Origin: Propionibacteriaceae bacterium
Lineage (GTDB): Bacteria; Actinomycetota; Actinomycetes; Propionibacteriales; Propionibacteriaceae
Assembly: GCA_031256725.1 (NCBI GenBank)
Contig: JAIRQE010000021.1
Span: forward strand, 120,001 to 152,000
Reading direction: 5' to 3'
Length of the DNA: 32,000 nt
Positions within the stretch are counted from its first letter, which is position 1. Every line of letters begins with the position of its first letter. The position numbers and the translations under genes were made by a program. Positions 1 to 12,636 of this stretch are shown here, piece after piece. A model generated the notes under the pieces. The model was not told the DNA's origin. It saw only the letters and a list, made by a program, of their open reading frames with translations, and did not search any database.

Positions 1-1
1 G

Positions 2-112
2 GTACGCCAGTGGGCCAAGAAAGCGGAAGCCTGCCTTGATGGTTTCCCTGATGTGGCTGCGACGCGGGCCCTAAGAATGCTGTGTGAGCAGGCTGTAGAA
101 CGTACCAAGTAA
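2..112 (+). CDS. 3' end of an upstream gene (last 36 codons plus stop); tentatively a polyprenyl diphosphate synthase-like C-terminus
   Basis: Frame 2 is open from the window edge and ends at TAA 110-112 (..VRQWAKKAEACLDGFPDVAATRALRMLCEQAVERTK*). The helical Ala/Leu-rich tail resembles C-termini of trans-polyprenyl synthases. Thirty-six residues are not diagnostic. Confidence 0.3.
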   Translation, partial: VRQWAKKAEACLDGFPDVAATRALRMLCEQAVERTK

Positions 113-169
113 AACCTGTCAGATTCCTGGTGGCTGGATTACACTATATCTAAGTGAAGGGGGCTGCCA

Positions 170-1711
170 ATGATGAGACGGGCCAGAAAACCTACTTGGG
201 GTGTTATCGGAATCGCTTTTGTGATGATTCTTGGGGGGTGTGCCCAGGGTCCACAGGTGGGTCTTGTTGATGAGTACCGCAACTATTATCAGATCTTTGT
301 GGGGTCTTTCGCTGACTCGGATGGGAACGGGTTGGGTGACCTGAATGGGATCACTGAGAAGTTGGATTATATTCGTTATGATCTTGGGGTTGACGGGATC
401 TGGCTGACACCTATTAACCCTTCGCCGACTTATCATAAGTACGATGTCACGAATTACAAGGGGATTGATCCTCAGTTTGGTACGATTCTCGACTTTCGTA
501 GATTCCTTGAGGAGGCCCATGAGCGGGGGATACGGGTACTCATTGATCTAGTGATCCAGCACACCTCCTGGGAGCATCCATGGTTCACTGAGGCCATCAA
601 GGCTTTGAAGTCGGGTGTCGAGAGCCCTTACGTCGACTACTACTATTTCGGTTCTGAACCGCATGAAGGCTATGCCCAGTACAAGGATACGAATATCTAT
701 TATGATGCTGAGTTTGTTGCCGAGATGCCTGATCTCAATGTGAAGAATCCAGTAGTACGTGAAGAGATCGCCTCGATTGTGGAATTCTGGCTCAATGAGG
801 GGGTGGACGGTTTCAGGCTGGATGCCACGACACATCTTCTTCCAAGCGATCCAGGCGGCGAGAAAGAGTTCTTCGAATGGTTGAATGCCACCTGCACCCA
901 AATCAACCCAGATGCCTATCTGGTGGGTGAAGCCTGGACCTGGGCAGACAGAATCGTTTCCTATTATGAATCGGGGATTCCGAGCTTCTTCAACTATCCC
1001 TTCTATGTCGATGACACTATCAACACCGCACTCCAAGCCAAGGATGGAGCCACCTTGGCCACAGCCATTGAGGCCTGGAATCAGCGTCTAGATGATGCCC
1101 ATCCTTCAGCCATTGATGCCCCCTTCATCTCCAACCATGACATCAATCGCCCAGCCTCACATCTGGCATGGAACCTTACTCGTGGAAAACTCAGCGCGGC
1201 GATATACCTTCTCATGCCAGGAAACCCCTTCATTTATTATGGGGAAGAGATCGGTATGGTTGGCTCGGGAATCGACCAAAACAAGCGCATGCCCATGGTC
1301 TGGTCCACCACCGACACCACTAGTATGCCGAATCCTCCCCACTACGCTGACTATGACATGAGTGCTGTTGTCGGAGTTGATGTTCAGCGTGAGGACCCAG
1401 GTTCCCTGTTGAATTTCTATCATGAGGTCCTGGAGCTGAAAGTGAAATATCCGGCTATTGCGCGCGGGAAGTATGCTGCTTTAGACACTGAACGAGCGAT
1501 ACTGGGGTGGCGTAGCGACTACAACAAGAGGGTCATCTATGTCTTCGAGAACTTAAGCGATGCGACTGTGACCCAGTCATTGACTGACTTGGGGATTAAG
1601 TCCGCAGTCACGGTAAGGGATACCCTGCTTCCCGCCGGAGATGATCAGATTCCCACATTGGATAAGAGGGTGCTGACCCTCCCACCGTATACAGTTGCGG
1701 TGGTTGGATAA
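170..1711 (+). CDS. GH13 (alpha-amylase family) glycoside hydrolase, lipoprotein
   Basis: 513-aa ORF. The N-terminus MMRRARKPTWGVIGIAFVMILGGC is a signal peptide plus lipobox. GH13 conserved regions are present: DLVIQHTS (region I), GFRLDATTH (region II, nucleophile Asp), VGEAW (region III, acid/base Glu) and FISNHD (region IV). Amylase versus alpha-glucosidase specificity cannot be resolved by eye. Confidence 0.9.
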   Translation: MMRRARKPTWGVIGIAFVMILGGCAQGPQVGLVDEYRNYYQIFVGSFADSDGNGLGDLNGITEKLDYIRYDLGVDGIWLTPINPSPTYHKYDVTNYKGIDPQFGTILDFRRFLEEAHERGIRVLIDLVIQHTSWEHPWFTEAIKALKSGVESPYVDYYYFGSEPHEGYAQYKDTNIYYDAEFVAEMPDLNVKNPVVREEIASIVEFWLNEGVDGFRLDATTHLLPSDPGGEKEFFEWLNATCTQINPDAYLVGEAWTWADRIVSYYESGIPSFFNYPFYVDDTINTALQAKDGATLATAIEAWNQRLDDAHPSAIDAPFISNHDINRPASHLAWNLTRGKLSAAIYLLMPGNPFIYYGEEIGMVGSGIDQNKRMPMVWSTTDTTSMPNPPHYADYDMSAVVGVDVQREDPGSLLNFYHEVLELKVKYPAIARGKYAALDTERAILGWRSDYNKRVIYVFENLSDATVTQSLTDLGIKSAVTVRDTLLPAGDDQIPTLDKRVLTLPPYTVAVVG

Positions 1712-1885
1712 ATCAGGACCCCAGGGATTTCCAAGAGACGATCACCTGTGATCTGCGCCCTGGATTCAGCGATTCCACTGTACAGAAGGTCAAATCTCAC
1801 GGGTGCTGGCATTCACAAAAAGAATCCCCCCTGTGATCCGGCGTACCGTCCAGGCTGGATACCAGAGGAGAAACTAGAATCAAGT

Positions 1886-1947
1886 CTAGTACCAATGTTT
1901 GGTTTGCCAGAAACTCCAGGCCCCACATGGCGTGGTGTAACGGTTTT
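1886..1947. repeat. Left copy of a 62-bp perfect direct repeat; an orphan copy of the 3' end of the hydrolase gene at 3972..5216
   Basis: ctagtaccaatgtttggtttgccagaaactccaggccccacatggcgtggtgtaacggtttt is identical base for base to 3972-4033. Read on the minus strand it encodes NRYTTPCGAWSFWQTKHWY*. Similarity to the full gene stops at the repeat edge. The minus frame has no start codon and hits a stop at 2045-2047. Confidence 0.95.
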
Positions 1948-2069
1948 CCCTTGGATTACCGAAATTAAAGGCGCTTGGCAAGCCACAAATTGCAGATGAT
2001 GGTACAATTGTATACCTAACTAAAGAGAAGGCTAGCGTTGCAATTCAGAGCAATGATTATGGATTTAGG

Positions 2070-2666
2070 GTGCTGACGATCCTTCAGGATACCTCATCGA
2101 CTGATCGTATTTCATATCAAATTGAATTACCTGCAGGGGCGACGATTGTGCGCGATGAAGCGGGTGAAGGTGCCTGGATTCTTGATTCCTACGGAGAGCC
2201 GTATACGTATCTAGAGTCTGCGTGGGCTCTCGATGCAACCGGAAGGTCAGTACCAACATGGTTTCTTATAGAAGGCAACTCACTCGTTCAGATTATTGAT
2301 CACACGAGTAGTAATTTCACATACCCAATTGTGGCGGATCCTTCCTGGATTTGGTGGGTAGGAACTAGCTTGGCATGTGCGGCGGAACTTGGTACCTTGG
2401 CATTCGGAGCGGCAAAAGTTATATCTGCTTTTGCCAAGGCAGAGAAGATCATTAAAGCAAGCAAGAATATGATAAATGCATACAAAGAACTTGGAAACAA
2501 GATGCAAAACGTCATTGATGCTCTTAAAAAGTACATCAAAAATCGAAGTAGTCTAACAAAAAAGCAGATTAATGCTCTAGAGACACTATCAAAAGCAGCA
2601 ATTGGAAGCGTGATAACTATTCTTGGTGTTGGATCGTGTTACAGCCTTTGGACGAAAGGTACCTAA
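2070..2666 (+). CDS. Hypothetical protein, probably a 5'-truncated remnant: a beta-rich domain followed by two Gly/Ala-rich hydrophobic segments flanking an amphipathic Lys-rich helical hairpin
   Basis: 198-aa ORF from GTG 2070. The same frame is open back to 1941, immediately after a TAA inside the left repeat, with protein-like sequence (..DDGTIVYLTKEKASVAIQSNDYGFR) but no ATG, GTG or TTG. The C-terminus is WIWWVGTSLACAAELGTLAFGAAKVISAF...AAIGSVITILGVGSCYSLW. No recognisable catalytic motif. Confidence 0.5.
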   Translation: MLTILQDTSSTDRISYQIELPAGATIVRDEAGEGAWILDSYGEPYTYLESAWALDATGRSVPTWFLIEGNSLVQIIDHTSSNFTYPIVADPSWIWWVGTSLACAAELGTLAFGAAKVISAFAKAEKIIKASKNMINAYKELGNKMQNVIDALKKYIKNRSSLTKKQINALETLSKAAIGSVITILGVGSCYSLWTKGT

Positions 2667-2968
2667 TGTCCAGTTTCGTTGGAATTGTGGTTCTGATTCT
2701 CTGCTCTGGGGGAGTAATTATGACAGGCATTGTATGGGGTGGGCCATGGCCACCAAAAGCATCAGTAACAAATGGATTATCGCAAGAAATAAATCTAGGT
2801 AACATGAGAATATGGACTGCGATTTTCTTCCTTGGAACTATAGTTGCGCTCTGGCTGGTGAACCCCTTCCACAGTCTACTAGTAAGCTACTTGGTTCTAT
2901 TGTTTCTTCCACTTCTTGTTGGCGTTGTGATCAGGCGCATTTTGTTGCTTCGTGAAAAGCGTGCATGA
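2666..2968 (+). CDS. Small integral membrane protein (about 100 aa, 3 predicted TM helices); immunity-like partner of the upstream ORF
   Basis: ATG 2666 overlaps the upstream TAA (TAATG). An AAAGG RBS lies 6 nt upstream. Hydrophobic segments are SSFVGIVVLILCSGGVIMTGIVWG, IWTAIFFLGTIVALWLV and LLVSYLVLLFLPLLVGVVI, followed by the basic tail RRILLLREKRA. Confidence 0.6.
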   Translation: MSSFVGIVVLILCSGGVIMTGIVWGGPWPPKASVTNGLSQEINLGNMRIWTAIFFLGTIVALWLVNPFHSLLVSYLVLLFLPLLVGVVIRRILLLREKRA

Positions 2969-2996
2969 AAACCATCAATCCAAGAAAATGTGAATT

Positions 2997-3044
2997 GCCG
3001 CACCCCAGTATGAGCTTATACGAAAACTTATACTGGGGTGTGGC
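2997..3044 (+). other. Strong stem-loop (about 18 bp including G-U pairs, 12-nt loop) between the miniprotein gene and the lipoprotein gene
   Basis: gccgcaccccagtatgag / cttatactggggtgtggc are complementary. There is no U-tract on either side, so this is not a canonical intrinsic terminator. It ends 18 nt before the ATG at 3062. Confidence 0.6.
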
Positions 3045-3061
3045 GGATAGAAAGGCGACAC

Positions 3062-3952
3062 ATGTCTGATAGATCAGCATGGCGAGGTAATCCTCTTCAC
3101 CTCATCACTCTTTCCCTTGTTAGCATGGTAATGGGGTTATGTGGCTGCTCAAGTGCAGATGAACAGTTACCATCTTTGTCGGAGGATACTGGTTCACAGG
3201 ATACTTTAGAAGCCATCGCCTCCGCATTTTATAGCTGTCTTTGTGATGTGGAATTACCTGCAATGTATGAAATCCATCAAGGGAGGCCAATCCTCGTTCG
3301 ATTTGATGAAACGGTACCTGTGTTTTGGAGATATCCTGGTCAGACTTTGATGTTCACGAGCGCTGTCTCCCAAGATGATGTAGAGATCGTTTTTAACGAT
3401 GAGGGTTCAGATGATCTCAGTCCATTGCTGATTGTTAAGGGACTTGATTCCTCAAATTTGTTTAGCGAGTGTCTAGAATCATCTGGATATGATGAAGCGC
3501 AGGTATTCAGTGAAACTGAATCGACGTCGATTGTGGCTACATATGTTCGTTTGACTGTGGATGCATCAAACGAATGGGCAAACTGTGCCCGGGAGAATGG
3601 GTGGGCGACTGTTAAGGATGCCGTTCTTCCCTTGGATCCAAGTAATTCCCCGGCTCCAATGGTTCTTCTGCCTCCATCAATAGAGGAAATGGAGTTAAGA
3701 GCGCTACTTGTTACTTGCCCAGCATTCTTACCTGATCGAGCAAAAAAGAATGAGGAGCTTCTACTTACCCAATCCGGTCCAGCCTCATTCCCGGATGGAT
3801 ATCAAGAACAGCCTAATATTGGTTTTGACTATCCCGGATTTCGTAATGATGAACTTGATCCAGGTGGATCAGTGCAGGACGAGACCGCAATAAAGTTGGC
3901 TCTTCTTTCCCAAATTCTTGCTGAAGCCGAGAACTCTTATTGGGATGAGTAG
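3062..3952 (+). CDS. Acidic lipoprotein of unknown function
   Basis: ATG 3062 is preceded by AAAGG with a 6-nt spacer. The annotated GTG 3038 lies inside the hairpin. The signal peptide plus lipobox-like LITLSLVSMVMGLCGCSS is followed by an Asp/Glu-rich mature protein. No family recognised. Confidence 0.65.
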   Translation: MSDRSAWRGNPLHLITLSLVSMVMGLCGCSSADEQLPSLSEDTGSQDTLEAIASAFYSCLCDVELPAMYEIHQGRPILVRFDETVPVFWRYPGQTLMFTSAVSQDDVEIVFNDEGSDDLSPLLIVKGLDSSNLFSECLESSGYDEAQVFSETESTSIVATYVRLTVDASNEWANCARENGWATVKDAVLPLDPSNSPAPMVLLPPSIEEMELRALLVTCPAFLPDRAKKNEELLLTQSGPASFPDGYQEQPNIGFDYPGFRNDELDPGGSVQDETAIKLALLSQILAEAENSYWDE

Positions 3953-3971
3953 GTTGGATTTACTGAAAACC

Positions 3972-4033
3972 CTAGTACCAATGTTTGGTTTGCCAGAAAC
4001 TCCAGGCCCCACATGGCGTGGTGTAACGGTTTT
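3972..4033. repeat. Right copy of the 62-bp perfect direct repeat (the functional 3' end of the hydrolase gene)
   Basis: Identical to 1886-1947. It covers the stop codon and the last 19 codons of the 3972..5216 CDS. Confidence 0.95.
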
Positions 4034-5216
4034 TGATGTAGGTCAGACCCCAACTAATTTGGGTGACAGCATTGGTGCGGTAGTCAGCGCCAGCGGAAGC
4101 CATCTTTGAAGCAGGGAGGGACTGGGGAATTCCATAGGCCCCGGAGGAGGGGTTCTCGGCCCACCATCTCCAGTTGGATTCCCGGTTCCATAGGTTCACA
4201 AGACACTGGAACTGAGTCGTGTTCTGCCAGCCATAGGCGGCCATCATTCCATAGGCAGCCGATTGAGCCTCGGCAGGGGAGAGGTTCCCTGAGGTGATAG
4301 GTGGGGTACTTGGCGCCCCCGAGTTTGAGGTATTCGTATTGTTCTGGGCATTCTTGGCCTCTTCGGCTTTGCGTGCCTCCTCTGCCTTTCGGGCATCCTC
4401 AGCTTTGCGTTTTTCGTCTGCGATCTTGGTGTTGATCGCATGTTGGGCGTTCTTGGCCTGATCAAGGGTGGTACGTGTGTCAGCCTGTACCTGGGCTGCA
4501 TAGTCGCGAACGACCTGGGATTCGATCAACGCGGCCTCAAGGGCATCCTCAGCGGCTTGTGCGGCTTGCTGGGCACTCAAGGCGGATGCTACATGGGCTT
4601 GAGCTTCCTGTTTCGCCAGGTCGGCAGCATGTTGAGCCTCGGTGCACGTGAGTTCGGCAGCATCCAATTCCAGTTGGATGGTACGGAGCTTGTCAAGATC
4701 AACCTGGTTGGTGACCAGTACTGTGTCGGACCATTGGACACGGTTGGCAAGGTCGGCTGTTGATTCGGCTGTGAGGAGTACAGCAACAGAGATCAATGGC
4801 ATGGAGTCTTGGACGATGGAGCGAGCATAGGCATTGATGTGGGCTTTTTGTACCTCAATCTTTGCTTGGCCTTGGGCAACCATGATCTTGGCTTTAGCCA
4901 AAGCCTGGTCAGCCTCAAAGAGTTCCGCAGTCTTGTGGGCTTCGACTTCGGTTGCTTTCGCCCATTCTGCTTGGGCCTGTGACAGCACACTTCGGGCGTA
5001 CTCGACCCTCGACTCAGTCATGCGAACCTGGGCATTCGCAGCCTCAAGGGCCGTTGTTGCATTGTTGTAGTCGGTTTGGGCCCTGTAGGCCGCAGTATCG
5101 GCTCGACTCTTGGCGGAGGTCAGATCCTCCGCATGTGCAGGGTAAGCCAGCAGTGAAAACGCCATCGCGGAAGCGCACAGTACGCCAACCGCCCGACACA
5201 GCGACATTTGAGCCAC
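3972..5216 (-). CDS. Secreted coiled-coil peptidoglycan hydrolase with a C-terminal lytic-transglycosylase-like (SLT / Apf-type) domain
   Basis: GTG start at 5216 with GGAGG 8 nt upstream. Signal peptide ..AFSLLAYPAHA|ED. About 280 aa are Ala/Gln/Glu-rich heptad-like sequence including KAEDARKAEEARKAEEAK. The C-terminus CLVNLWNRESNWRWWAENPSSGAYGIPQ...QISWGLTYIKNRYTTPCGAWSFWQTKHWY carries the Glu-Ser motif typical of transglycosylase-like domains. Confidence 0.8.
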   Translation of the reverse strand: MAQMSLCRAVGVLCASAMAFSLLAYPAHAEDLTSAKSRADTAAYRAQTDYNNATTALEAANAQVRMTESRVEYARSVLSQAQAEWAKATEVEAHKTAELFEADQALAKAKIMVAQGQAKIEVQKAHINAYARSIVQDSMPLISVAVLLTAESTADLANRVQWSDTVLVTNQVDLDKLRTIQLELDAAELTCTEAQHAADLAKQEAQAHVASALSAQQAAQAAEDALEAALIESQVVRDYAAQVQADTRTTLDQAKNAQHAINTKIADEKRKAEDARKAEEARKAEEAKNAQNNTNTSNSGAPSTPPITSGNLSPAEAQSAAYGMMAAYGWQNTTQFQCLVNLWNRESNWRWWAENPSSGAYGIPQSLPASKMASAGADYRTNAVTQISWGLTYIKNRYTTPCGAWSFWQTKHWY

Positions 5217-5414
5217 GTTGAAATCCTCCGTCCGTTCGATGATCTCTGGGTTCGCCGGGCTAGACGAAGGGAGTTCATCGAAAGAATTCTCCTCAACCCT
5301 AGCTGGGGTTGCGCAGGCAAGCGATATTTATTTAGTACCAAAAATGAAGACGCGCGGGAAGGCTCAAGACTAGGTTGAGGATTCGTACCCGCCGGCCCCA
5401 GTAGACTAGAGCCC

Positions 5415-7379
5415 ATGACTCAACCAGCCTTTGATTTCACCCGCTTCGATATGGACGTACGACCCGGGGATGATCTTTTCCGTCACGTGAATGGTACCTG
5501 GCTTGCCACAGCCAAGATCCCCGACGATAAACCCGCCATCGGGGCCTTTGATGATCTACGTGACGCGTCAGAGAAGGCGATTCATGATCTTTGTGAGGAA
5601 CTCGCCGGACAGGATGTGGATCCCGCAACGGAGGAAGGGAAGATTGCGGGGTTGTACCGCTCCTTCATGGATGAGGAGAGGATCGAGAAGCTGGGCTCTG
5701 CACCTCTTGCTGGACTCCTAGCACGCATTAATCAGATTGCGACGGTTGATGATCTGCGGGCCTGGATTGGGTGGTGCATGAGGTACGGTTTCAACTCATT
5801 GACTGGCGGTGATATCGACGCTGATCCTGGCGACCCAAAGAGGTACCTCTTCTTCGTTGGTCAAGGTGGTCTCGGCCTTCCAGATGAGTCCTATTACACC
5901 GAACCCCAGCATGAAGAAGTACGCACCCAATACCACAGGTACCTGATCCAAACTCTGGCGTTGGGTGGGGATCGTGAGGATCCTAGTGAACAGGATCTCG
6001 AAGACGCTGAGGCTATTTGGGAACTGGAAATGGCCATTGCTCGACGTCATTGGGACATCGTCAAGGTACGTGACCTTCAACAGATGTACAACTTGCGTAC
6101 CATTGCTCAACTCGATGAGGAAGCGCCCAACTTTGGGTGGACAACCATCTTGGCGGCCGCAGGAATCGATGACAGGGTTCACGAAGTCGTCAACTGCCAA
6201 CCTTCATTTTTCAGTGATGTTGCGGAACTCATGACTGAGGATTGGCTCACTTCATGGAAGGCATGGGCTAGGTTCCACGTGATCTCCGATCTATCTCCGT
6301 ACCTCTCGAAAGCCTTTGTGGAGAACCGCTTCGGATTCTATGGTCGGATACTGACCGGGCAGAAGATCATCAGGCCACGTTGGAAGAGGGCGGTCTCCTT
6401 CACCGAGTCTGTGATGGGTGAGGCTCTGGGGAAGGTGTACGTTCGGGAGCACTATCCACCGGAAGCAGCCGAGAGGATGACCGAACTTGTGGACAACCTT
6501 CTCGCCGCCTATCGGGAGTCGATCAGCGCCCTGACATGGATGGGGGACCAAACCAAGCAGGAGGCCCTGCGCAAGCTGGATCACTTCCGGCCAAAGATCG
6601 GTCATCCCCAGAAGTGGCGCGACTATTCGGCCCTGGTTGTGGGTGAGGATCTCATAGAGAACGTTATCGCTGAGGGGGAGTTTACAACCGAGTACGAGAT
6701 GGGCAAACTCAGTGAACCCGTGGATCCTGATGAGTGGCTGATGTACCCACAGACAGTGAATGCCTACTACCACCCCTTACGCAACGAGATTGTTTTTCCG
6801 GCTGCGATCCTCCAGCCGCCCTTCTTCAATGTGGATGCTGATGATGCTGTGAACTATGGTGGGATCGGGGCAGTCATTGGACACGAAATCGGCCACGGAT
6901 TTGATGACCAGGGGTCAACCTGTGACGGTGATGGAATGCTACGTGACTGGTGGACACCTGAGGATCGGGAAGCCTTTGAGAAGGCAACACAGGCCCTCAT
7001 TGACCAGTACAACACACTCAGCCCTGCCCAAACCCCAGAACTCACAGTCAATGGTGAACTCACCATTGGGGAGAACATTGGTGACCTGGGTGGGCTCGGG
7101 ATCGCGATCAAGGCCTGGCGTTTGGCCACTGGAGGGGATGTGGAACCCATTGATGGCTACACAGGTCTCCAGCGACTCTTCCTAAGTTGGGCTGCTGCCT
7201 GGAGTTACAACTCCCGTGATGAATTGGTTGCTCAACGCTTGGCTACCGATGAGCATTCACCGCCCGAATTCCGCTGTAACCAGGTGGTACGAAACATCGA
7301 CGAATTCTATGAAGCATTCAATGTGACCCCAGAGGATCAAGAATGGTTGCCACCTAAGGAGCGGGTTACCATTTGGTGA
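5415..7379 (+). CDS. pepO: M13 family zinc metallopeptidase (PepO / neprilysin-like endopeptidase)
   Basis: 654 aa. Contains NAYY, the HEIGHGFD zinc motif (HExxH), GENIGDLGG (the ExxxD third-ligand region) and the C-terminal ..CNQVVRNIDEFYEAFNV. No signal peptide seen. Confidence 0.9.
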   Translation: MTQPAFDFTRFDMDVRPGDDLFRHVNGTWLATAKIPDDKPAIGAFDDLRDASEKAIHDLCEELAGQDVDPATEEGKIAGLYRSFMDEERIEKLGSAPLAGLLARINQIATVDDLRAWIGWCMRYGFNSLTGGDIDADPGDPKRYLFFVGQGGLGLPDESYYTEPQHEEVRTQYHRYLIQTLALGGDREDPSEQDLEDAEAIWELEMAIARRHWDIVKVRDLQQMYNLRTIAQLDEEAPNFGWTTILAAAGIDDRVHEVVNCQPSFFSDVAELMTEDWLTSWKAWARFHVISDLSPYLSKAFVENRFGFYGRILTGQKIIRPRWKRAVSFTESVMGEALGKVYVREHYPPEAAERMTELVDNLLAAYRESISALTWMGDQTKQEALRKLDHFRPKIGHPQKWRDYSALVVGEDLIENVIAEGEFTTEYEMGKLSEPVDPDEWLMYPQTVNAYYHPLRNEIVFPAAILQPPFFNVDADDAVNYGGIGAVIGHEIGHGFDDQGSTCDGDGMLRDWWTPEDREAFEKATQALIDQYNTLSPAQTPELTVNGELTIGENIGDLGGLGIAIKAWRLATGGDVEPIDGYTGLQRLFLSWAAAWSYNSRDELVAQRLATDEHSPPEFRCNQVVRNIDEFYEAFNVTPEDQEWLPPKERVTIW

Positions 7380-7562
7380 AAGAAACCTGAAAGGGTTTAG
7401 GTCTCAGGTTCAGGTTCCTCCATAGTCTGCGTGGTGGTGACCTAATCCGACAGCCTGATGAGCATTGACAGACTCGGCTAGGTTTCGCCGTAAGTCACAT
7501 ATCCATTGACCTTGCATAGGAGGGTACTGATACCCTCGTTATGAATCTGTGAAAGGGGCACC

Positions 7563-8480
7563 ATGTACCCAGACATCCTCCTTATTGGCGAGGCGCTGAT
7601 CGATATTGTGCGCCGAGCAGGAGCCAAACCTGAGTACCATCCTGGAGGAAGCCCTCTGAATGTGGCCGTTGGTCTAGGGCGCTTGGGTCATCGTCCGATT
7701 CTTGCGACCTGGTTCGCCCGAGACGAATTGGGTAGATCCATTGAAAAACACTGCGCCGATTCACAGGTACGAATCCTTCCGGGATCCGACCAGGCCCTTC
7801 GTACCCCCACCGCTGATGCCATTGTGGATGAGGATGGACATGCCGACTATGTCTTCGACATTGATCTACAGGTACCACCGCTTCCGATGGACTTCCATGG
7901 CTTGGTCCATACTGGCTCTATCGGGGCTCTGATACAGCCAGTAGCCACTGAGGTACTCTCCTATATTGAGAATATCCGGTCAGCTTTCATCACCTTTGAC
8001 CCCAATTGTCGACCATCCATCATGGGTGATGTCAATAATCTACGCCCGCTGGTTGAAGGCTACGTGGAGGCATCGAACCTGGTGAAGGTCTCCGATGAGG
8101 ATCTTCAATGGCTGTACCGTGGCCGTGGTACAACCGAAGCCGACCTCGAAGAGTTAGCGAAAGCCTGGGTCGGGTACGGCCCCACTGTGGTTATTGTCAC
8201 CATGGGCGCCGGGGGGGCTCTCGGGGTGACCCAAGACTTTACCGTTCGGGTAACAGCTGACACCTCTCACGGTTTGGTGGATACCGTGGGAGCAGGGGAT
8301 TCCTTTATGGCTGGGCTCATCCACGAAATCATCACAGGCGGGTATACCGAGGATCAGTCTGGACTTGGCGTAGATCCCCATGTACTCACAACCATCCTAA
8401 CCAGGGCCGCAGCCATGTCGGGGATCACCGTTTCACGTGCAGGGGCGAACCCTCCATGGCTATCAGAATTAGGGGAATGA
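7563..8480 (+). CDS. PfkB-family carbohydrate kinase (fructokinase-like)
   Basis: 305 aa. AAAGGGG RBS upstream. The N-terminal GG region is GGSPLNVAVGLGRLG and the C-terminal motif is DTVGAGDSF. Substrate not assignable from sequence alone. Confidence 0.8.
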   Translation: MYPDILLIGEALIDIVRRAGAKPEYHPGGSPLNVAVGLGRLGHRPILATWFARDELGRSIEKHCADSQVRILPGSDQALRTPTADAIVDEDGHADYVFDIDLQVPPLPMDFHGLVHTGSIGALIQPVATEVLSYIENIRSAFITFDPNCRPSIMGDVNNLRPLVEGYVEASNLVKVSDEDLQWLYRGRGTTEADLEELAKAWVGYGPTVVIVTMGAGGALGVTQDFTVRVTADTSHGLVDTVGAGDSFMAGLIHEIITGGYTEDQSGLGVDPHVLTTILTRAAAMSGITVSRAGANPPWLSELGE

Positions 8481-8481
8481 T

Positions 8482-9699
8482 ATGGACCTTCACAACGAAA
8501 CCCTCAGGTTACTCGACTTTGCTTTAGGGTCGGTGTGCGAGGAAGGCGGGTTCGGTTGGCTCGACGACACTGGTCAGATTGACCGCACCCAGGATAGGCA
8601 ATTGTGGATCAACTGCCGTATGACCCATGTCGCAGCAATTGGCACCCTGCTCAACCACCCGGGATGCCGTGAGGCTCTCGATCATGGGGTCACTGCCCTG
8701 ACAACGCTTTTCGCAGATCCCATCTACGGTGGGTGGTACGACCGAATCAGCTGGGATGGGCAACCAATCGATGACACTAAGGCTGCCTATGCTCATGCCT
8801 TCGTCATCCTCGCTGCCTCCAGTGCTGTCGCGGCAGGATCCACTAAGGCCCTTCCGCTCTTCCAGGAGGCCCTTACCATCTCCACGACCCGCTTCTGGGA
8901 TGAGACCCAATCCATGTCTGTTGAGGAGTGGGATCGCAGTTTCTCCACCCTGTCCACCTATCGCGGCGTCAACGCCAATATGCACACAGTTGAGGCCTAC
9001 CTTGCAGCCGCAGACGTAATCGACCTCGTACACCTCAGCACAGTCTCCAGTGATCTTCTCAGGGTACGAGCACACTCCATTATGGACAGGATCGTGAACC
9101 GTGAGGCCCGCGCCAACCAGTGGCGTATCCCTGAGCATTTCGATGAAATCTGGACCTCTGATTTAGAATATAACCGCAACCAGCCAGCCGATCCTTTCCG
9201 TCCCTTTGGGGCCACTATCGGGCACGGATTGGAATGGGCTCGCCTGGCCATCCAGACTCATGGGAGCATCACTGATCCACCTGAGTGGATGCTTGAAGGG
9301 GCCAAGGCTCTCTATGAAAGAGCTGTTGATGATGGGTGGGAGGTTGATGGTACTCCTGGGTTCATCTACACCAGTGATTGGGATGGTCACCCTGTCGTAC
9401 ACGAGCGAATGCACTGGGTACTTGCTGAGGCAATTGGAGCCAGTATTGCCCTCGACAAGGCAAGAATCCTTGCTACTTCCCAGGATTGTGGCCGCTGGTG
9501 GGATTACGCAGACACCTATCTCATTGACTACGACAATGGTTCTTGGCACCACGAGTTGGATCAGAACAATCGCCCCTCCTGTCTGGTGTGGACAGGCAAA
9601 CCAGATGTGTACCACGCACTACAGGCCACCTTGTTTTCTCGACTGCCTGTGGTACCAGCGATCGTACCTGCTCTTGCACGCGGATTGATCACGAGTTGA
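8482..9699 (+). CDS. AGE-family (N-acylglucosamine 2-epimerase / mannose isomerase / YihS-like) aldose-ketose isomerase or epimerase
   Basis: 405 aa, starting 1 nt after the kinase stop. The pattern of Trp/His-rich helices (GHGLEWARL, HWVLAEAI, WHHELD) is characteristic of the AGE (alpha/alpha)6-barrel superfamily. Confidence 0.75.
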   Translation: MDLHNETLRLLDFALGSVCEEGGFGWLDDTGQIDRTQDRQLWINCRMTHVAAIGTLLNHPGCREALDHGVTALTTLFADPIYGGWYDRISWDGQPIDDTKAAYAHAFVILAASSAVAAGSTKALPLFQEALTISTTRFWDETQSMSVEEWDRSFSTLSTYRGVNANMHTVEAYLAAADVIDLVHLSTVSSDLLRVRAHSIMDRIVNREARANQWRIPEHFDEIWTSDLEYNRNQPADPFRPFGATIGHGLEWARLAIQTHGSITDPPEWMLEGAKALYERAVDDGWEVDGTPGFIYTSDWDGHPVVHERMHWVLAEAIGASIALDKARILATSQDCGRWWDYADTYLIDYDNGSWHHELDQNNRPSCLVWTGKPDVYHALQATLFSRLPVVPAIVPALARGLITS

Positions 9700-9832
9700 T
9701 TCCCATATTCATGAAGAACCTTCCAAGAATCGGAGTGGGAATCTAGACATTGTGAGGTTTTCTTGTCCGCTGATAGACTTCGTATAAGAAGGGTTTTATC
9801 GGTCGTACCCCTAGGGGGACTAGGAGGGCTCT

Positions 9833-10975
9833 ATGGTACATAAACCTACTTCTGTTAATGCGCTGTTCAGTGACGGAATCCTTGAATCTGACTCTCGACT
9901 CCTTAACCTTGCCCGTTCCGGTGATCAAGAGGCTCTCACAAAGCTGTGGACCCGCTACTATACCTACGCCTATATCTCCGCATGCGAACGTGGAGGAAAA
10001 ACCGATCCTCACAAACTTGTCTCCCAAGCCTTCCGCAAGCAACTCATTGACGCTTCCAAGCGATCCAGCGATGTGAGCGCCTTCCTACGGGGATGGTTCA
10101 CCAAGCTTGGCGCCAAGCCTCCAGCCACCCCACATCGTGCAGTGGCGTGGGCTTTCTATGCACTCCCTGAAAAAACACGGGCCCTAGTCTGGCGTCACAA
10201 CATTGATGAATGGTCCGATGCTGAGATCATGGGTGAGTTCGCGATCAGCGCCAGGTCGGTTGATCTGTCGATCAACCAGGCCAACAGCCAGTTCGCAGAC
10301 AATGTCGCACTGGCATCTGGGCTCATGGGGATTCGCTCGGATCTGGAGCTCTTCCACGATGCGTCATGGCGAGCTGGCGCTCTGACGGCAGGAATCCTTC
10401 ACTCCCATCCTCATTATCTTGACTCCACCAAAGTGATCTATCCTCCTGGGCCACCAGAGGTCACATCCAAGTCACGGGTGGCTCTACCCAGCTTCAGTCT
10501 TGCGACTTGGTGGGCACAGGCATCAACCATTGCACGTGTAATTCCCATTGCTGGGGCAGCGTTAGTCATCGTGGCTGGGGCTGTCATTGGGATTCTTGGG
10601 TTGAGGCCACATACGACCGATAAGGAAACTGTGCCTCCTGCGGTCTACACTGCGTCCTACAACGAGCCGACTACTCCCACTCCATGGCCGACGCCTACGC
10701 CGACACCAACCCCTACTCCAACTGCGGAACCCACTCCCACGGAAACCCAGCCCGCTCCTCAGGCTACGCGTACATCGACAGCACCGAGGCCGACCCAGAG
10801 GCAAACAAGTGCGCCAGTGAATCCGCCACCAGCGCCTCCGCCTGCGCCATCTGTAACACTCGCTCCAACTACCGCACCGACGACACCCAGTGAAGAACCA
10901 CCTCCAACGGAAGAAGCACCTCCAACGGAAGAACCCACTGTCGTTGAGCCCCAGCCGAGTGTCACAGAGATATAG
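9833..10975 (+). CDS. Membrane-anchored sigma-70 (ECF)-like protein with a Pro/Thr-rich extracytoplasmic tail
   Basis: GGAGG RBS 5 nt upstream. The N-terminus has LARSGDQEALTKLWTRYYTYAY (region-2-like) and ALPEKTRALVWRHNIDEWSDAEIMGEFAISARSVDLSINQANSQF (region-4 HTH-like). A single TM helix VIPIAGAALVIVAGAVIGILGL follows. The C-terminal 110 aa are P/T/E-rich (PTPTPTPTPTPT, EEPPPTEEAPPTEEP). Confidence 0.6.
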   Translation: MVHKPTSVNALFSDGILESDSRLLNLARSGDQEALTKLWTRYYTYAYISACERGGKTDPHKLVSQAFRKQLIDASKRSSDVSAFLRGWFTKLGAKPPATPHRAVAWAFYALPEKTRALVWRHNIDEWSDAEIMGEFAISARSVDLSINQANSQFADNVALASGLMGIRSDLELFHDASWRAGALTAGILHSHPHYLDSTKVIYPPGPPEVTSKSRVALPSFSLATWWAQASTIARVIPIAGAALVIVAGAVIGILGLRPHTTDKETVPPAVYTASYNEPTTPTPWPTPTPTPTPTPTAEPTPTETQPAPQATRTSTAPRPTQRQTSAPVNPPPAPPPAPSVTLAPTTAPTTPSEEPPPTEEAPPTEEPTVVEPQPSVTEI

Positions 10976-11000
10976 AGCTCATTTCTTTCTCGTTGAAGCC

Positions 11001-11825
11001 CTAGAAATCCGTTGGCCGACCTAAGTATTCCCATTCAGCAAGTTCTGCTAGATGGGTCTCTAACTCTGTACGGATCACATCGAAAGCGAAGTTTCCAAGA
11101 GGGAACCTAAATGGGGGATTCTCAGACATAACAGCTGTGATGATTGCCTCGGCGGCCTTCTCGGGGTCACCAGCTTGGGTACCATGCATGGTGTCCTTCT
11201 CCTTTCGGCGTACACCCACTGTCTCAGCATAGGCAGCGATAGGTACATCAGGCTGTTTCAAGGATCGGCCCGCAAAGTCTGTACGGAAGGGGCCAGGTTG
11301 AACAATGATGACCCGGATACCGTGAGGTTCGACTTCGATCTTCAACCCAGCAGACATTCCCTCAAGAGCGAACTTCGTTGCGGAATAGAGCCCCGATCCA
11401 GCCGAGGACACCTGTCCTGCAGTCGAAGAAACATTCACGATCCTCCCACTGCCCTGGGCCCTCATCGTTGGCAGGAACTGCTGAATCAGATCCAATGGAC
11501 CAAAGAAGTTCGTTGCGAACAGTTCGTCGGTGGCGTCCCTCTCGGCCTCTTCGACCGCTGAACGGTAGCCGTACCCTGCATTATTCACAAGGACATCAAG
11601 TCGTCCAAAACGATCAATGGTTGCCTGTACTGCTGCTAGAACTTGGTCATGGTCCATCACATCTAGGGGTACGGCCAAAGCTTGATCGGGGTAGCCGGCA
11701 ACCAGGTCGGCAACTGTGTGAACATCGCGGGCGGTGACGACAGCCTCGAATCCATGTGAGAGAACGGCTTTCGCAAGCGCTCGCCCGATTCCCGTTGAAC
11801 AACCAGTAATAAACCACGTTGACAT
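11001..11825 (-). CDS. Short-chain dehydrogenase/reductase (SDR) family oxidoreductase
   Basis: The start is reassigned to ATG 11825 (MSTWFITG), with GGAGAG 4 nt upstream. Motifs present: TGCSTGIGRA (TGxxxGxG), NNAG and YSATK (YxxxK). Confidence 0.9.
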   Translation of the reverse strand: MSTWFITGCSTGIGRALAKAVLSHGFEAVVTARDVHTVADLVAGYPDQALAVPLDVMDHDQVLAAVQATIDRFGRLDVLVNNAGYGYRSAVEEAERDATDELFATNFFGPLDLIQQFLPTMRAQGSGRIVNVSSTAGQVSSAGSGLYSATKFALEGMSAGLKIEVEPHGIRVIIVQPGPFRTDFAGRSLKQPDVPIAAYAETVGVRRKEKDTMHGTQAGDPEKAAEAIITAVMSENPPFRFPLGNFAFDVIRTELETHLAELAEWEYLGRPTDF

Positions 11826-11863
11826 TATCTCTCCTGTTGTGAATGTGTGTTGTTGGGCAGTAC

Positions 11864-12589
11864 CTAACTGACGGTCTGCCATACGACGATGTTCTTGCGT
11901 ACTGGTATTGCGCTCGCATCCTCGACGAAAAGCTCGGGTGAATGGTCTTGGATCTCGCTGATAATCGCAAAGATTGCACTCAAATGGACGGTCAATAAAT
12001 CCTTGGATTTCTCGATCTTCCCGTCGACCACGGCATTAAAGATCCCACGATGTTCGCTTGCCAGCTCAACAAGGTTGGTATGCGCTCTCAAGGTGAGCAT
12101 TCGGGCACGATCAAGATGGGACTTCGCAGAGGCCAAGGCAGTCCACGCAGTGCCATGCCCTGCGAGGTCAAGGAGTTTGTGATGGAAATCCTCATCCAAG
12201 TTAATGAATGTTGTGAGATCTTGGGCTTGGGCAACCTGATCTTGGTGATCCAGGTTCTCCCTGAGTAATCCGACGGTTTCCTCGTTGAGGGGGTACACAA
12301 TATCGGCGAGGGAAGCCACTTCGACTGCCTGCCTCAGGAATTGTGCATTGGCGACCTTCTGAGGATCGACCCTTGAGACGAAGGAGCCGATTTGGGGGAA
12401 GATTCGCACGAACCCATCCTCGGCAAGCAGGATCAATGCTTCTCGAATGGGGGTCCGAGACATGTCGAGGGTAGCCGATAACTCTGATTCCCTCAATGCA
12501 TGCCCAGGTGGCAAATTCAAATGAACAATCTGCTCTAATAAGGCTTTATAGGCACGCTGTCTGGACCCACCTCTTTGTGCGGTGCTCAT
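11864..12589 (-). CDS. GntR-family transcriptional regulator, FadR/FCD subfamily
   Basis: The N-terminal winged HTH is ..LRESELSATLDMSRTPIREALILLAEDGFV. The all-helical C-terminal domain is FCD-like. ATG 12589 sits 6 nt downstream of a TATACT box (plus-strand coordinates 12596-12601), suggesting a leaderless mRNA. An alternative GTG at 12607 has no RBS. Confidence 0.85.
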   Translation of the reverse strand: MSTAQRGGSRQRAYKALLEQIVHLNLPPGHALRESELSATLDMSRTPIREALILLAEDGFVRIFPQIGSFVSRVDPQKVANAQFLRQAVEVASLADIVYPLNEETVGLLRENLDHQDQVAQAQDLTTFINLDEDFHHKLLDLAGHGTAWTALASAKSHLDRARMLTLRAHTNLVELASEHRGIFNAVVDGKIEKSKDLLTVHLSAIFAIISEIQDHSPELFVEDASAIPVRKNIVVWQTVS

Positions 12590-12636
12590 TGAACAAGTAT
12601 AACGCACCTAGTATTGAAGTACTATCTACCATATTG

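Follow-up and report, generated by a model that had tools for sequence, protein, structure and literature searches.

How does a block of foreign DNA come to lie between two perfect copies of the end of a chromosomal gene when no recombinase gene accompanies it? This question is raised by a stretch of 32,000 nucleotides from a Propionibacteriaceae bacterium (contig JAIRQE010000021.1, positions 120,001 to 152,000 of the forward strand), hereafter called the window, in whose coordinates all positions of the locus are given. There, an AT-richer islet of 2,024 bp with three reading frames (1948-3971) is bracketed by two 62-bp direct repeats that correspond to the 3' end of a cell-wall hydrolase gene. 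An earlier sequence-only reading of the locus had described this as the attL/attR geometry left by site-specific integration into a gene end. We favour another explanation, which we hold with roughly even confidence: the 62-bp duplication would be the by-product of an illegitimate or homology-anchored insertion, and not the site of a recombinase. We favour illegitimate recombination because it directly explains why the first gene of the islet has lost its head at the edge of the repeat.

The repeat pair and the islet between its copies

The two copies of the repeat, at 1886-1947 and 3972-4033, are identical at 62 of 62 positions, and they are the only matches to this 62-mer in the window when up to three mismatches are allowed (none of 100 shuffled sequences matched). 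Identity ends abruptly at both edges, as had been noticed before: Smith-Waterman comparisons of the 300-400 bp flanking each side gave z-scores of at most 0.33 relative to shuffled sequences. Read on the minus strand, the repeat consists of 2 nt, 19 codons (…KNRYTTPCGAWSFWQTKHWY) and a TAG, and on the outside it ends with the exact stop codon of the hydrolase (CTA at 1886 and 3972). The right copy (3972-4033, minus strand) is the functional 3' end of this gene, and the orthologues have conserved C-termini with which the encoded end, ...KNRYTTPCGAWSFWQTKHWY, can be aligned. The sequence-only reading had assigned it the same role, leaving aside the two additional bases. It had also called the left copy an orphan, and this is what we found: the segment at 1886-1947 (minus strand) duplicates the stop codon, the last 19 codons and the 2 bases, and the sequence of an unrelated gene family, that of gene 1, starts immediately to its right. 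No special structure was found within the 62-mer, whose self-fold has a z-score of -0.9. At the other end of the islet, 19 bp (3953-3971) separate the stop codon of gene 3 from the right copy. This spacer, read from the sequence, is the right end of the inserted DNA and differs from the 19 bp that lie to the left of the left copy.

An orphan gene end might be the last trace of a second hydrolase gene, of which the left copy would be the surviving part. In other actinobacterial loci, genes with this C-terminal domain often have tandem or nearby paralogues, and the sequence-only reading had considered that the left copy might belong to a longer, decayed gene of this kind. We reject this source and leave it next to no probability. 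On neither side does similarity extend past the 62 bp: the left flank (1712-1885) resembles neither the hydrolase body, on either strand, nor the sequence to the left of the right copy. The place where the body of such a paralogue should lie is occupied by sequence of the gene 1 family, and an identity of 100% beside complete decay is implausible.

The islet is a compositionally foreign insertion. Its GC content is 44.4%, compared with 54.0 ± 1.4% elsewhere (519 windows of 2,024 bp, minimum 50.2%), which places it approximately 7 standard deviations under the level of the window. The hydrolase gene itself has 56.5% GC. With windows of 1 kb, GC content falls below 48% nowhere in the 32 kb except in the islet. 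Codon usage gives the same picture, as the GC content at third codon positions (GC3) is 0.37-0.41 in the three islet genes and 0.50-0.60 in the 20 other genes of the window. Hence, the islet is the sole compositional outlier of the 32 kb. The contrast previously reported from spot counts (33% and 42% GC inside, 60% in the hydrolase gene) was overstated in size, but the difference itself persists under sliding windows.

We found no integrase, transposase or tRNA in the whole window, in agreement with the sequence-only reading, and the scanned genes outside the islet are metabolic or transport-related, except for one gene of 380 amino acids without a Pfam match. Inverted, shared or repeated motifs were not above chance in the terminal 200 bp of each side of the islet, and the islet has no terminal inverted repeats. 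Coding sequence begins 0 bp from the left repeat and ends 19 bp before the right one, so that neither side has room for the arm sites of a recombinase. A blastn search with the islet DNA gave no match in plasmid and phage collections, and Rfam gave none over positions 1-8000. A transposon or insertion sequence flanked by a target-site duplication was also considered and rejected, in the absence of terminal inverted repeats and of a transposase. To our knowledge, a duplication of 62 bp is moreover far longer than known target-site duplications.

Gene 1 and the left junction

The most informative part of the locus is the joint between the left repeat and position 1948 (R|1948), where gene 1 begins. 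This gene (1948-2666, plus strand) encodes a beta-rich domain followed by a helical, hydrophobic C-terminal domain, and it is truncated at its 5' end. Its frame is open from 1941, after a TAA stop codon (1938-1940) that falls inside the repeat, and there is no ATG, GTG or TTG ahead of the GTG at 2070. The homologues that we aligned have 273-375 amino acids and N-terminal signal peptides. In a HMMER search with the C-terminal 109 residues of gene 1, only 85 clusters were retrieved among 1.8 billion representatives, and in most of them this domain sits at the C-terminal end of proteins of 320-430 amino acids. The BLASTP alignment with the closest homologue (P0122, 62% identity) places residue 2 of the query (F, nt 1944-1946) at residue 37 of the subject. 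From this alignment start and from the length of the family members, it follows that gene 1 lost its head, to within one codon, where the left repeat ends on its inner side. This edge is thus a break inside the conserved domain of a foreign gene. Gene 1 would lack a start, a signal peptide and approximately 100-190 N-terminal residues, and is probably non-functional. The description of the islet as a three-gene unit therefore stands for the three frames and fails for the first gene, which is not intact.

The F codon, TTT, is common to the last bases of the repeat (…ACGGTTTT) and to the frame of gene 1. Judging from the homologue, this TTT(T) at the joint R|1948 may represent a microhomology of 3-4 nt.

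The same joint bears on the trivial explanation that the arrangement was created by the assembly. The contig could thread a graph loop at a shared 62-mer, in which case the cell would really contain an empty chromosomal site plus a 2,086-bp circle or tandem array, or the islet could be a chimera with DNA of another member of the community. Our data come from one genome of the organism, the proteins of the window are found on a single contig of 240,050 bp and nowhere else, and the closest relatives, which are approximately 60% identical, are metagenome-assembled genomes (MAGs). The inserted block differs in GC content and is bounded by a short perfect repeat, and the integrated form and a mixture of empty site and circle should yield the same assembly graph. 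However, the hydrolase and gene 1 sequences share only about 4 nt at R|1948. An overlap of k-mers cannot have created such a joint, and reads containing both junctions between islet and repeat must exist. We also know of no common assembler for which 62 is a usual value of k or k-1. An assembly chimera is therefore unlikely, and the circle variant would still be a real biological element. Taken as a whole, we regard an assembly effect as very improbable.

The AF2 model of gene 1 (pLDDT 69) has strands at residues 1-133 and helices at 143-240. It gave no meaningful match when compared with folds of the PDB, a PDB profile search returned nothing, and we found no relatives of gene 1 in viral contigs. 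The family itself shows some peculiarities. The closest homologue of gene 1 (L007, 1758-2748) is split into a 49-residue open reading frame that encodes the signal peptide and a 273-residue one, the former being closed by a TGA 20 bp before the latter; this is either a pseudogene or a sequencing error. A distant relative (P0132) keeps the N-terminal part and has DUF2599 at its C-terminus, a domain swap that hints, as judged from the protein sequences, at modular C-termini in the gene 1 family.

How the islet may have entered

The insertion could have followed several routes. In each of them, a foreign AT-richer fragment of 2,024 bp, made of the 5'-cut gene 1, gene 2, a terminator hairpin and the unrelated gene 3, would enter at the 3' end of the hydrolase gene. 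In the anchored routes, the incoming DNA would already carry hydrolase sequence beside the foreign genes. In homology-facilitated illegitimate recombination, one end of the donor would pair homologously with the resident hydrolase gene, and its other end would be joined via the TTT(T) microhomology at a point 62 bp into the gene. In a Campbell-type insertion-duplication, the donor would circularise at the microhomology and insert with a single crossover within the 62 bp. Alternatively, the foreign fragment could have been captured in one step, at a staggered break or by template switching, the 62 bp being copied twice. Whatever the route, the hydrolase gene would remain intact, its old last 62 bp would be orphaned beside the original downstream flank, and gene 1 would be left headless.

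Two features of the locus are consistent with this explanation. First, at the junction the foreign gene 1 is cut at the equivalent of residue 37 of P0122, with the shared TTT(T). Second, the repeat belongs to a native anchor, i.e. a hydrolase gene of native composition with conserved orthologues, and the inserted DNA is foreign. There are also precedents for the process. In E. coli, single crossovers of circularised deleted molecules produced duplications of 109-950 bp of the homologous segment flanking the insert, and such circle insertions outnumbered classical homology-facilitated illegitimate recombination (PMC3240628). The same mechanism, with orphan gene remnants as its trace, has been proposed for the type VI secretion system (T6SS) arrays of Vibrio cholerae and for Rhs loci (PMC5361080). 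The islet resembles the products of insertion-duplication and homology-facilitated illegitimate recombination known from Acinetobacter, S. pneumoniae, P. stutzeri and E. coli (PMC3240628) in several respects: foreign DNA lies beside native sequence that serves as a homologous anchor, one of the joints has no fixed position and involves a few nucleotides of microhomology at most, and the anchor is duplicated around the insert, leaving an orphan gene end with no need for a recombinase gene or a specific site. It differs from them in the size of the anchor, 62 bp here and 109-950 bp in the E. coli experiments, and in that the arrangement of the donor was not observed here and the mechanism gives no reason to expect an outer edge at the stop codon.

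This last point is the first of several that weigh against an illegitimate or homology-anchored insertion. Under random illegitimate joining, an outer edge located exactly at the stop codon of the hydrolase is a coincidence of a few per cent. The anchored variants require a donor in which foreign DNA starts immediately after this stop codon, and the donor must be conspecific and carry an identical 62-mer; a codon-degenerate pattern of the 62-mer found nothing in GTDB representative genomes or in metagenome contigs. A segment of 62 bp is short for an efficient RecA-dependent crossover. The putative microhomology is read through a homologue that is only 62% identical, and a longer homeology between the repeat and the sequence upstream of gene 1, for which L007 served as proxy, was not significant (P about 0.1).

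The position of the outer edge is what one would expect of a decayed site-specific element, similar to the cis-mobilizable elements (CIMEs) of streptococci. The attP of such an element would have carried the last 62 bp of the hydrolase, a tyrosine recombinase would have integrated it with regeneration of the gene, and the integrase and most of the element would later have been deleted. The remnant would be an att-flanked cassette, which might still be mobile, either in trans or through accretion with a related element that enters the cell. We find this unlikely, if deserving of serious attention. The perfect direct repeats are the 3' end of the target, the reading frame is restored through its stop, and the block of identity ends exactly at the stop codon, which is the usual logic of integrases that target gene ends. 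The target sequence is highly conserved, and the cargo is foreign and AT-richer. There is a streptococcal precedent at the 3' ends of protein-coding genes, as CIMEs of 1.2-13 kb without any recombination genes are common at the ends of fda, rpsI and rpmG (PMC7563491). Like the streptococcal elements integrated at these genes or at the 3' ends of tRNA genes, the islet is a cargo-only block of approximately 2 kb between direct repeats of the target 3' end, with an intact target gene and without recombination genes (PMC7563491). It differs from them by the lack of arm sequences, by unrelated coding sequences that abut the repeats, with one cargo gene being cut, by a target for which no cognate integrative and conjugative element or integrative and mobilizable element is known, and by its actinobacterial host. 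A difficulty lies in the junctions. The inner edge of one repeat is exactly where gene 1 is cut, and the other repeat is 19 bp away from the end of gene 3. As a consequence, both att arms would be coding sequence of unrelated families, and two independent deletions would be needed, each ending at the core. Arm-like or inverted repeats were not found in the terminal 200 bp, and the window encodes no integrase. The part of the sequence-only reading that concerns geometry thus stands, in that the repeats restore the reading frame and have an edge at the stop codon, whereas its site-specific mechanism is not supported: the cut gene 1, the lack of room for arms, the lack of motifs and the lack of any such case in the relatives and metagenome loci compared count against it. 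The junction anatomy fits illegitimate recombination better than site-specific integration.

The relatives of the hydrolase provide additional evidence on this point. A protein search with the hydrolase gave no match in GTDB representative genomes. In the three orthologous contexts that we could see (L001, L004 and L099), the islet is absent downstream of the hydrolase; these relatives do not, therefore, carry the three genes as a fixed part of the locus, which is what the sequence-only reading had asked of an insertion. No copy of the hydrolase end flanks the inserts found in L001 or L004. We also examined the downstream side, 318 kb in total, of 80 metagenome loci that encode the same C-terminal domain. 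The only gene-end repeats were full or tandem paralogues: the k-mer matches fell within or upstream of the matched tandem-paralogue region, or, in one locus (L069), in a second paralogue that is complete and lies 5 kb downstream. In none of the 80 loci does an orphaned gene end follow downstream. Neither beside the orthologues nor among these loci was there an integrase-bearing element, a different cargo between copies of the repeat or a duplicated hydrolase end, and neither half of the 62-mer was present in viral contigs. With closest relatives only about 60% identical and no conspecific genome to compare, these negative results may count against a site-specific element that uses the hydrolase end as its target.

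The most mobile variant of this scheme is a live site. A 2,086-bp cassette without integrase, made of the islet and one repeat, would excise and reintegrate with the help of a recombinase encoded elsewhere in the genome of this uncultured organism, and would target the conserved 3' end of the cell-wall hydrolase gene; gene 1 and gene 2 would be a toxin/immunity-like pair of which only the protective half was retained here. We consider this improbable, though less so than an assembly effect. We know of no mobile element with such a target.

The displacement of polymorphic toxin tips produces comparable remnants. In Rhs, contact-dependent inhibition and T6SS effector loci, as here, a displaced orphan 3' fragment lies downstream of an intact gene, with acquired genes in between and possibly an immunity-like small membrane protein. 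The present orphan, however, is identical to the active end and is thus not an alternative tip, the C-terminus of the hydrolase is conserved among orthologues, and the hydrolase is not fused to any of the islet genes, which run on the opposite strand. We rejected C-terminal displacement for these reasons.

The cargo, the hydrolase and their neighbourhood

Gene 2 (2666-2968, plus strand) encodes a small hydrophobic protein of 100 amino acids with about three hydrophobic segments by inspection, and its start overlaps the stop codon of gene 1 (TAATG). A gene of 92-105 amino acids lies 3' of every gene 1 homologue that we examined (L007, L008, L014 and L015-L018), and the alignment of gene 2 with the two closest ones gave 41% and 30% identity. 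As far as comparison of sequences can tell, gene 2 is a conserved partner of gene 1, and the two appear to form a rare conserved two-gene module without family assignment. The pair is AT-richer than the host contig in 4 of the 4 contexts measured. It possibly associates a secreted protein with a small membrane protein in a toxin/immunity-like fashion.

Between gene 2 and gene 3 there is an inverted repeat with 21-nt arms that are 86% complementary (2997-3044, plus strand). In its 111-nt context, the hairpin folds with -41.4 kcal/mol (z = -6.05), and none of 200 shuffled sequences folded as well; it has no T-tract. It is probably the terminator of the unit formed by gene 1 and gene 2, and would mark the place where two unrelated parts of the islet meet.

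Gene 3 (3062-3952, plus strand) is complete, has a GC3 of 0.37 and is convergent with the hydrolase gene. It encodes a probable lipoprotein of 296 amino acids. Its relatives are 26-41% identical, and one of them is named as a protein of a Propionibacteriaceae MAG. In the contigs that could be read, some of them stand in tandem arrays of paralogues, and none was linked to gene 1 and gene 2 or to a hydrolase. For example, lipoproteins of this family form arrays of 3-4 paralogues of approximately 290 amino acids in two metagenome contigs (L011, 5490-9014; L009, 3-3240). No relatives of gene 3 were found in viral contigs. Searches of genes 1-3 against Pfam, NCBIfam and PHROGs gave no assignment, PADLOC gave weak, chance-level matches only, and nothing meaningful was found in the PDB by sequence or fold. 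Both gene 2 and gene 3 are intact. They point in the same direction as the upstream amylase gene and could be transcribed by read-through from it.

The hydrolase gene (3972-5216, minus strand) encodes a coiled-coil protein of 414 amino acids with a C-terminal domain similar to aggregation-promoting factors and lytic transglycosylases. The C-terminal 80 residues match the NCBIfam family AggPromo_Cterm (8.7e-35), and the coiled coil has a weak match to PcsB. The orthologues, in MAGs labelled Propionibacteriaceae, are 44-63% identical and have conserved C-termini. The gene of the window is intact. In the linker between the coiled coil and the C-terminal domain, three overlapping units of 30 nt recur with a period of 18 nt (4356-4421) and share 73-77% identity with the reference unit. 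They specify a charged stretch of the KAEEARKAEDARKAEE type, the length of which varies widely among orthologues.

On the left, the native flank contains the gene of a lipoprotein of the alpha-amylase family (170-1711, plus strand; PF00128, 4.9e-80), with a GC content of 50.9% and a GC3 of 0.57, co-oriented with the islet genes. It is followed by an intergenic segment of native composition (1712-1885) that adjoins the orphan copy and presumably followed the hydrolase stop codon before the insertion. A search for a terminator in this putative ancestral 3' flank gave no significant fold in 1712-1885.

The M13 peptidase gene upstream of the hydrolase is kept in the three orthologous contexts, and the downstream side varies. 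In L001, a gene of 217 amino acids adjoins the hydrolase and is followed by a YoeB/RelB toxin-antitoxin pair. In L004/L005, a 3.4-kb insert with restriction-modification and DUF4913 genes lies downstream of the orthologue (9245-12605) and is absent from L001; it encodes a DNA methylase fused to an S24-peptidase/LexA-like N-terminus, an NgoFVII-type restriction enzyme and a DUF4913 protein. In L099, a gene of 384 amino acids is followed by an ABC transporter. The block ends each time with an N-acylglucosamine 2-epimerase and PfkB. The order in these three relatives is thus PfkB, GlcNAc 2-epimerase, the 217/384-residue gene, variable genes in some cases, hydrolase and M13 peptidase, and the window differs from it at 5415-10975: PfkB, the epimerase and the orthologue of the 217-residue gene (35% identity) sit on the other side of the M13 gene. 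This orthologue (9833-10975) has 380 amino acids and is extended at its C-terminus by a long Pro/Thr-rich sequence (…TPWPTPTPTPTPTPTAEPTPTET…), which the L001 and L004 versions lack. The location of the three genes after the M13 peptidase gene indicates a transposition of the block with a breakpoint at the 3' end of the hydrolase gene. Together with the differing downstream contexts, it shows this gene end to be an old synteny breakpoint and a point of plasticity.

The feature is a fairly ordinary gene acquisition and a new instance of a known sort, i.e. a foreign islet without integrase and with a duplicated junction. It resembles the scar of a sloppy recombination event rather than a mobile element that still works. 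If an illegitimate or homology-anchored insertion is indeed its origin, the locus would be a clean natural example of how islets without integrases enter bacterial chromosomes, in which the end of a native gene was duplicated, a foreign gene was beheaded at a microhomology joint and the target gene was preserved. The module formed by gene 1 and gene 2 (85 clusters among the 1.8 billion representatives) is uncharacterised and may deserve a separate study. It is important to highlight that the same geometry is routinely scored as attL/attR by the logic used to find genomic islands. Hence, flanking direct repeats alone do not establish site-specific mobility.

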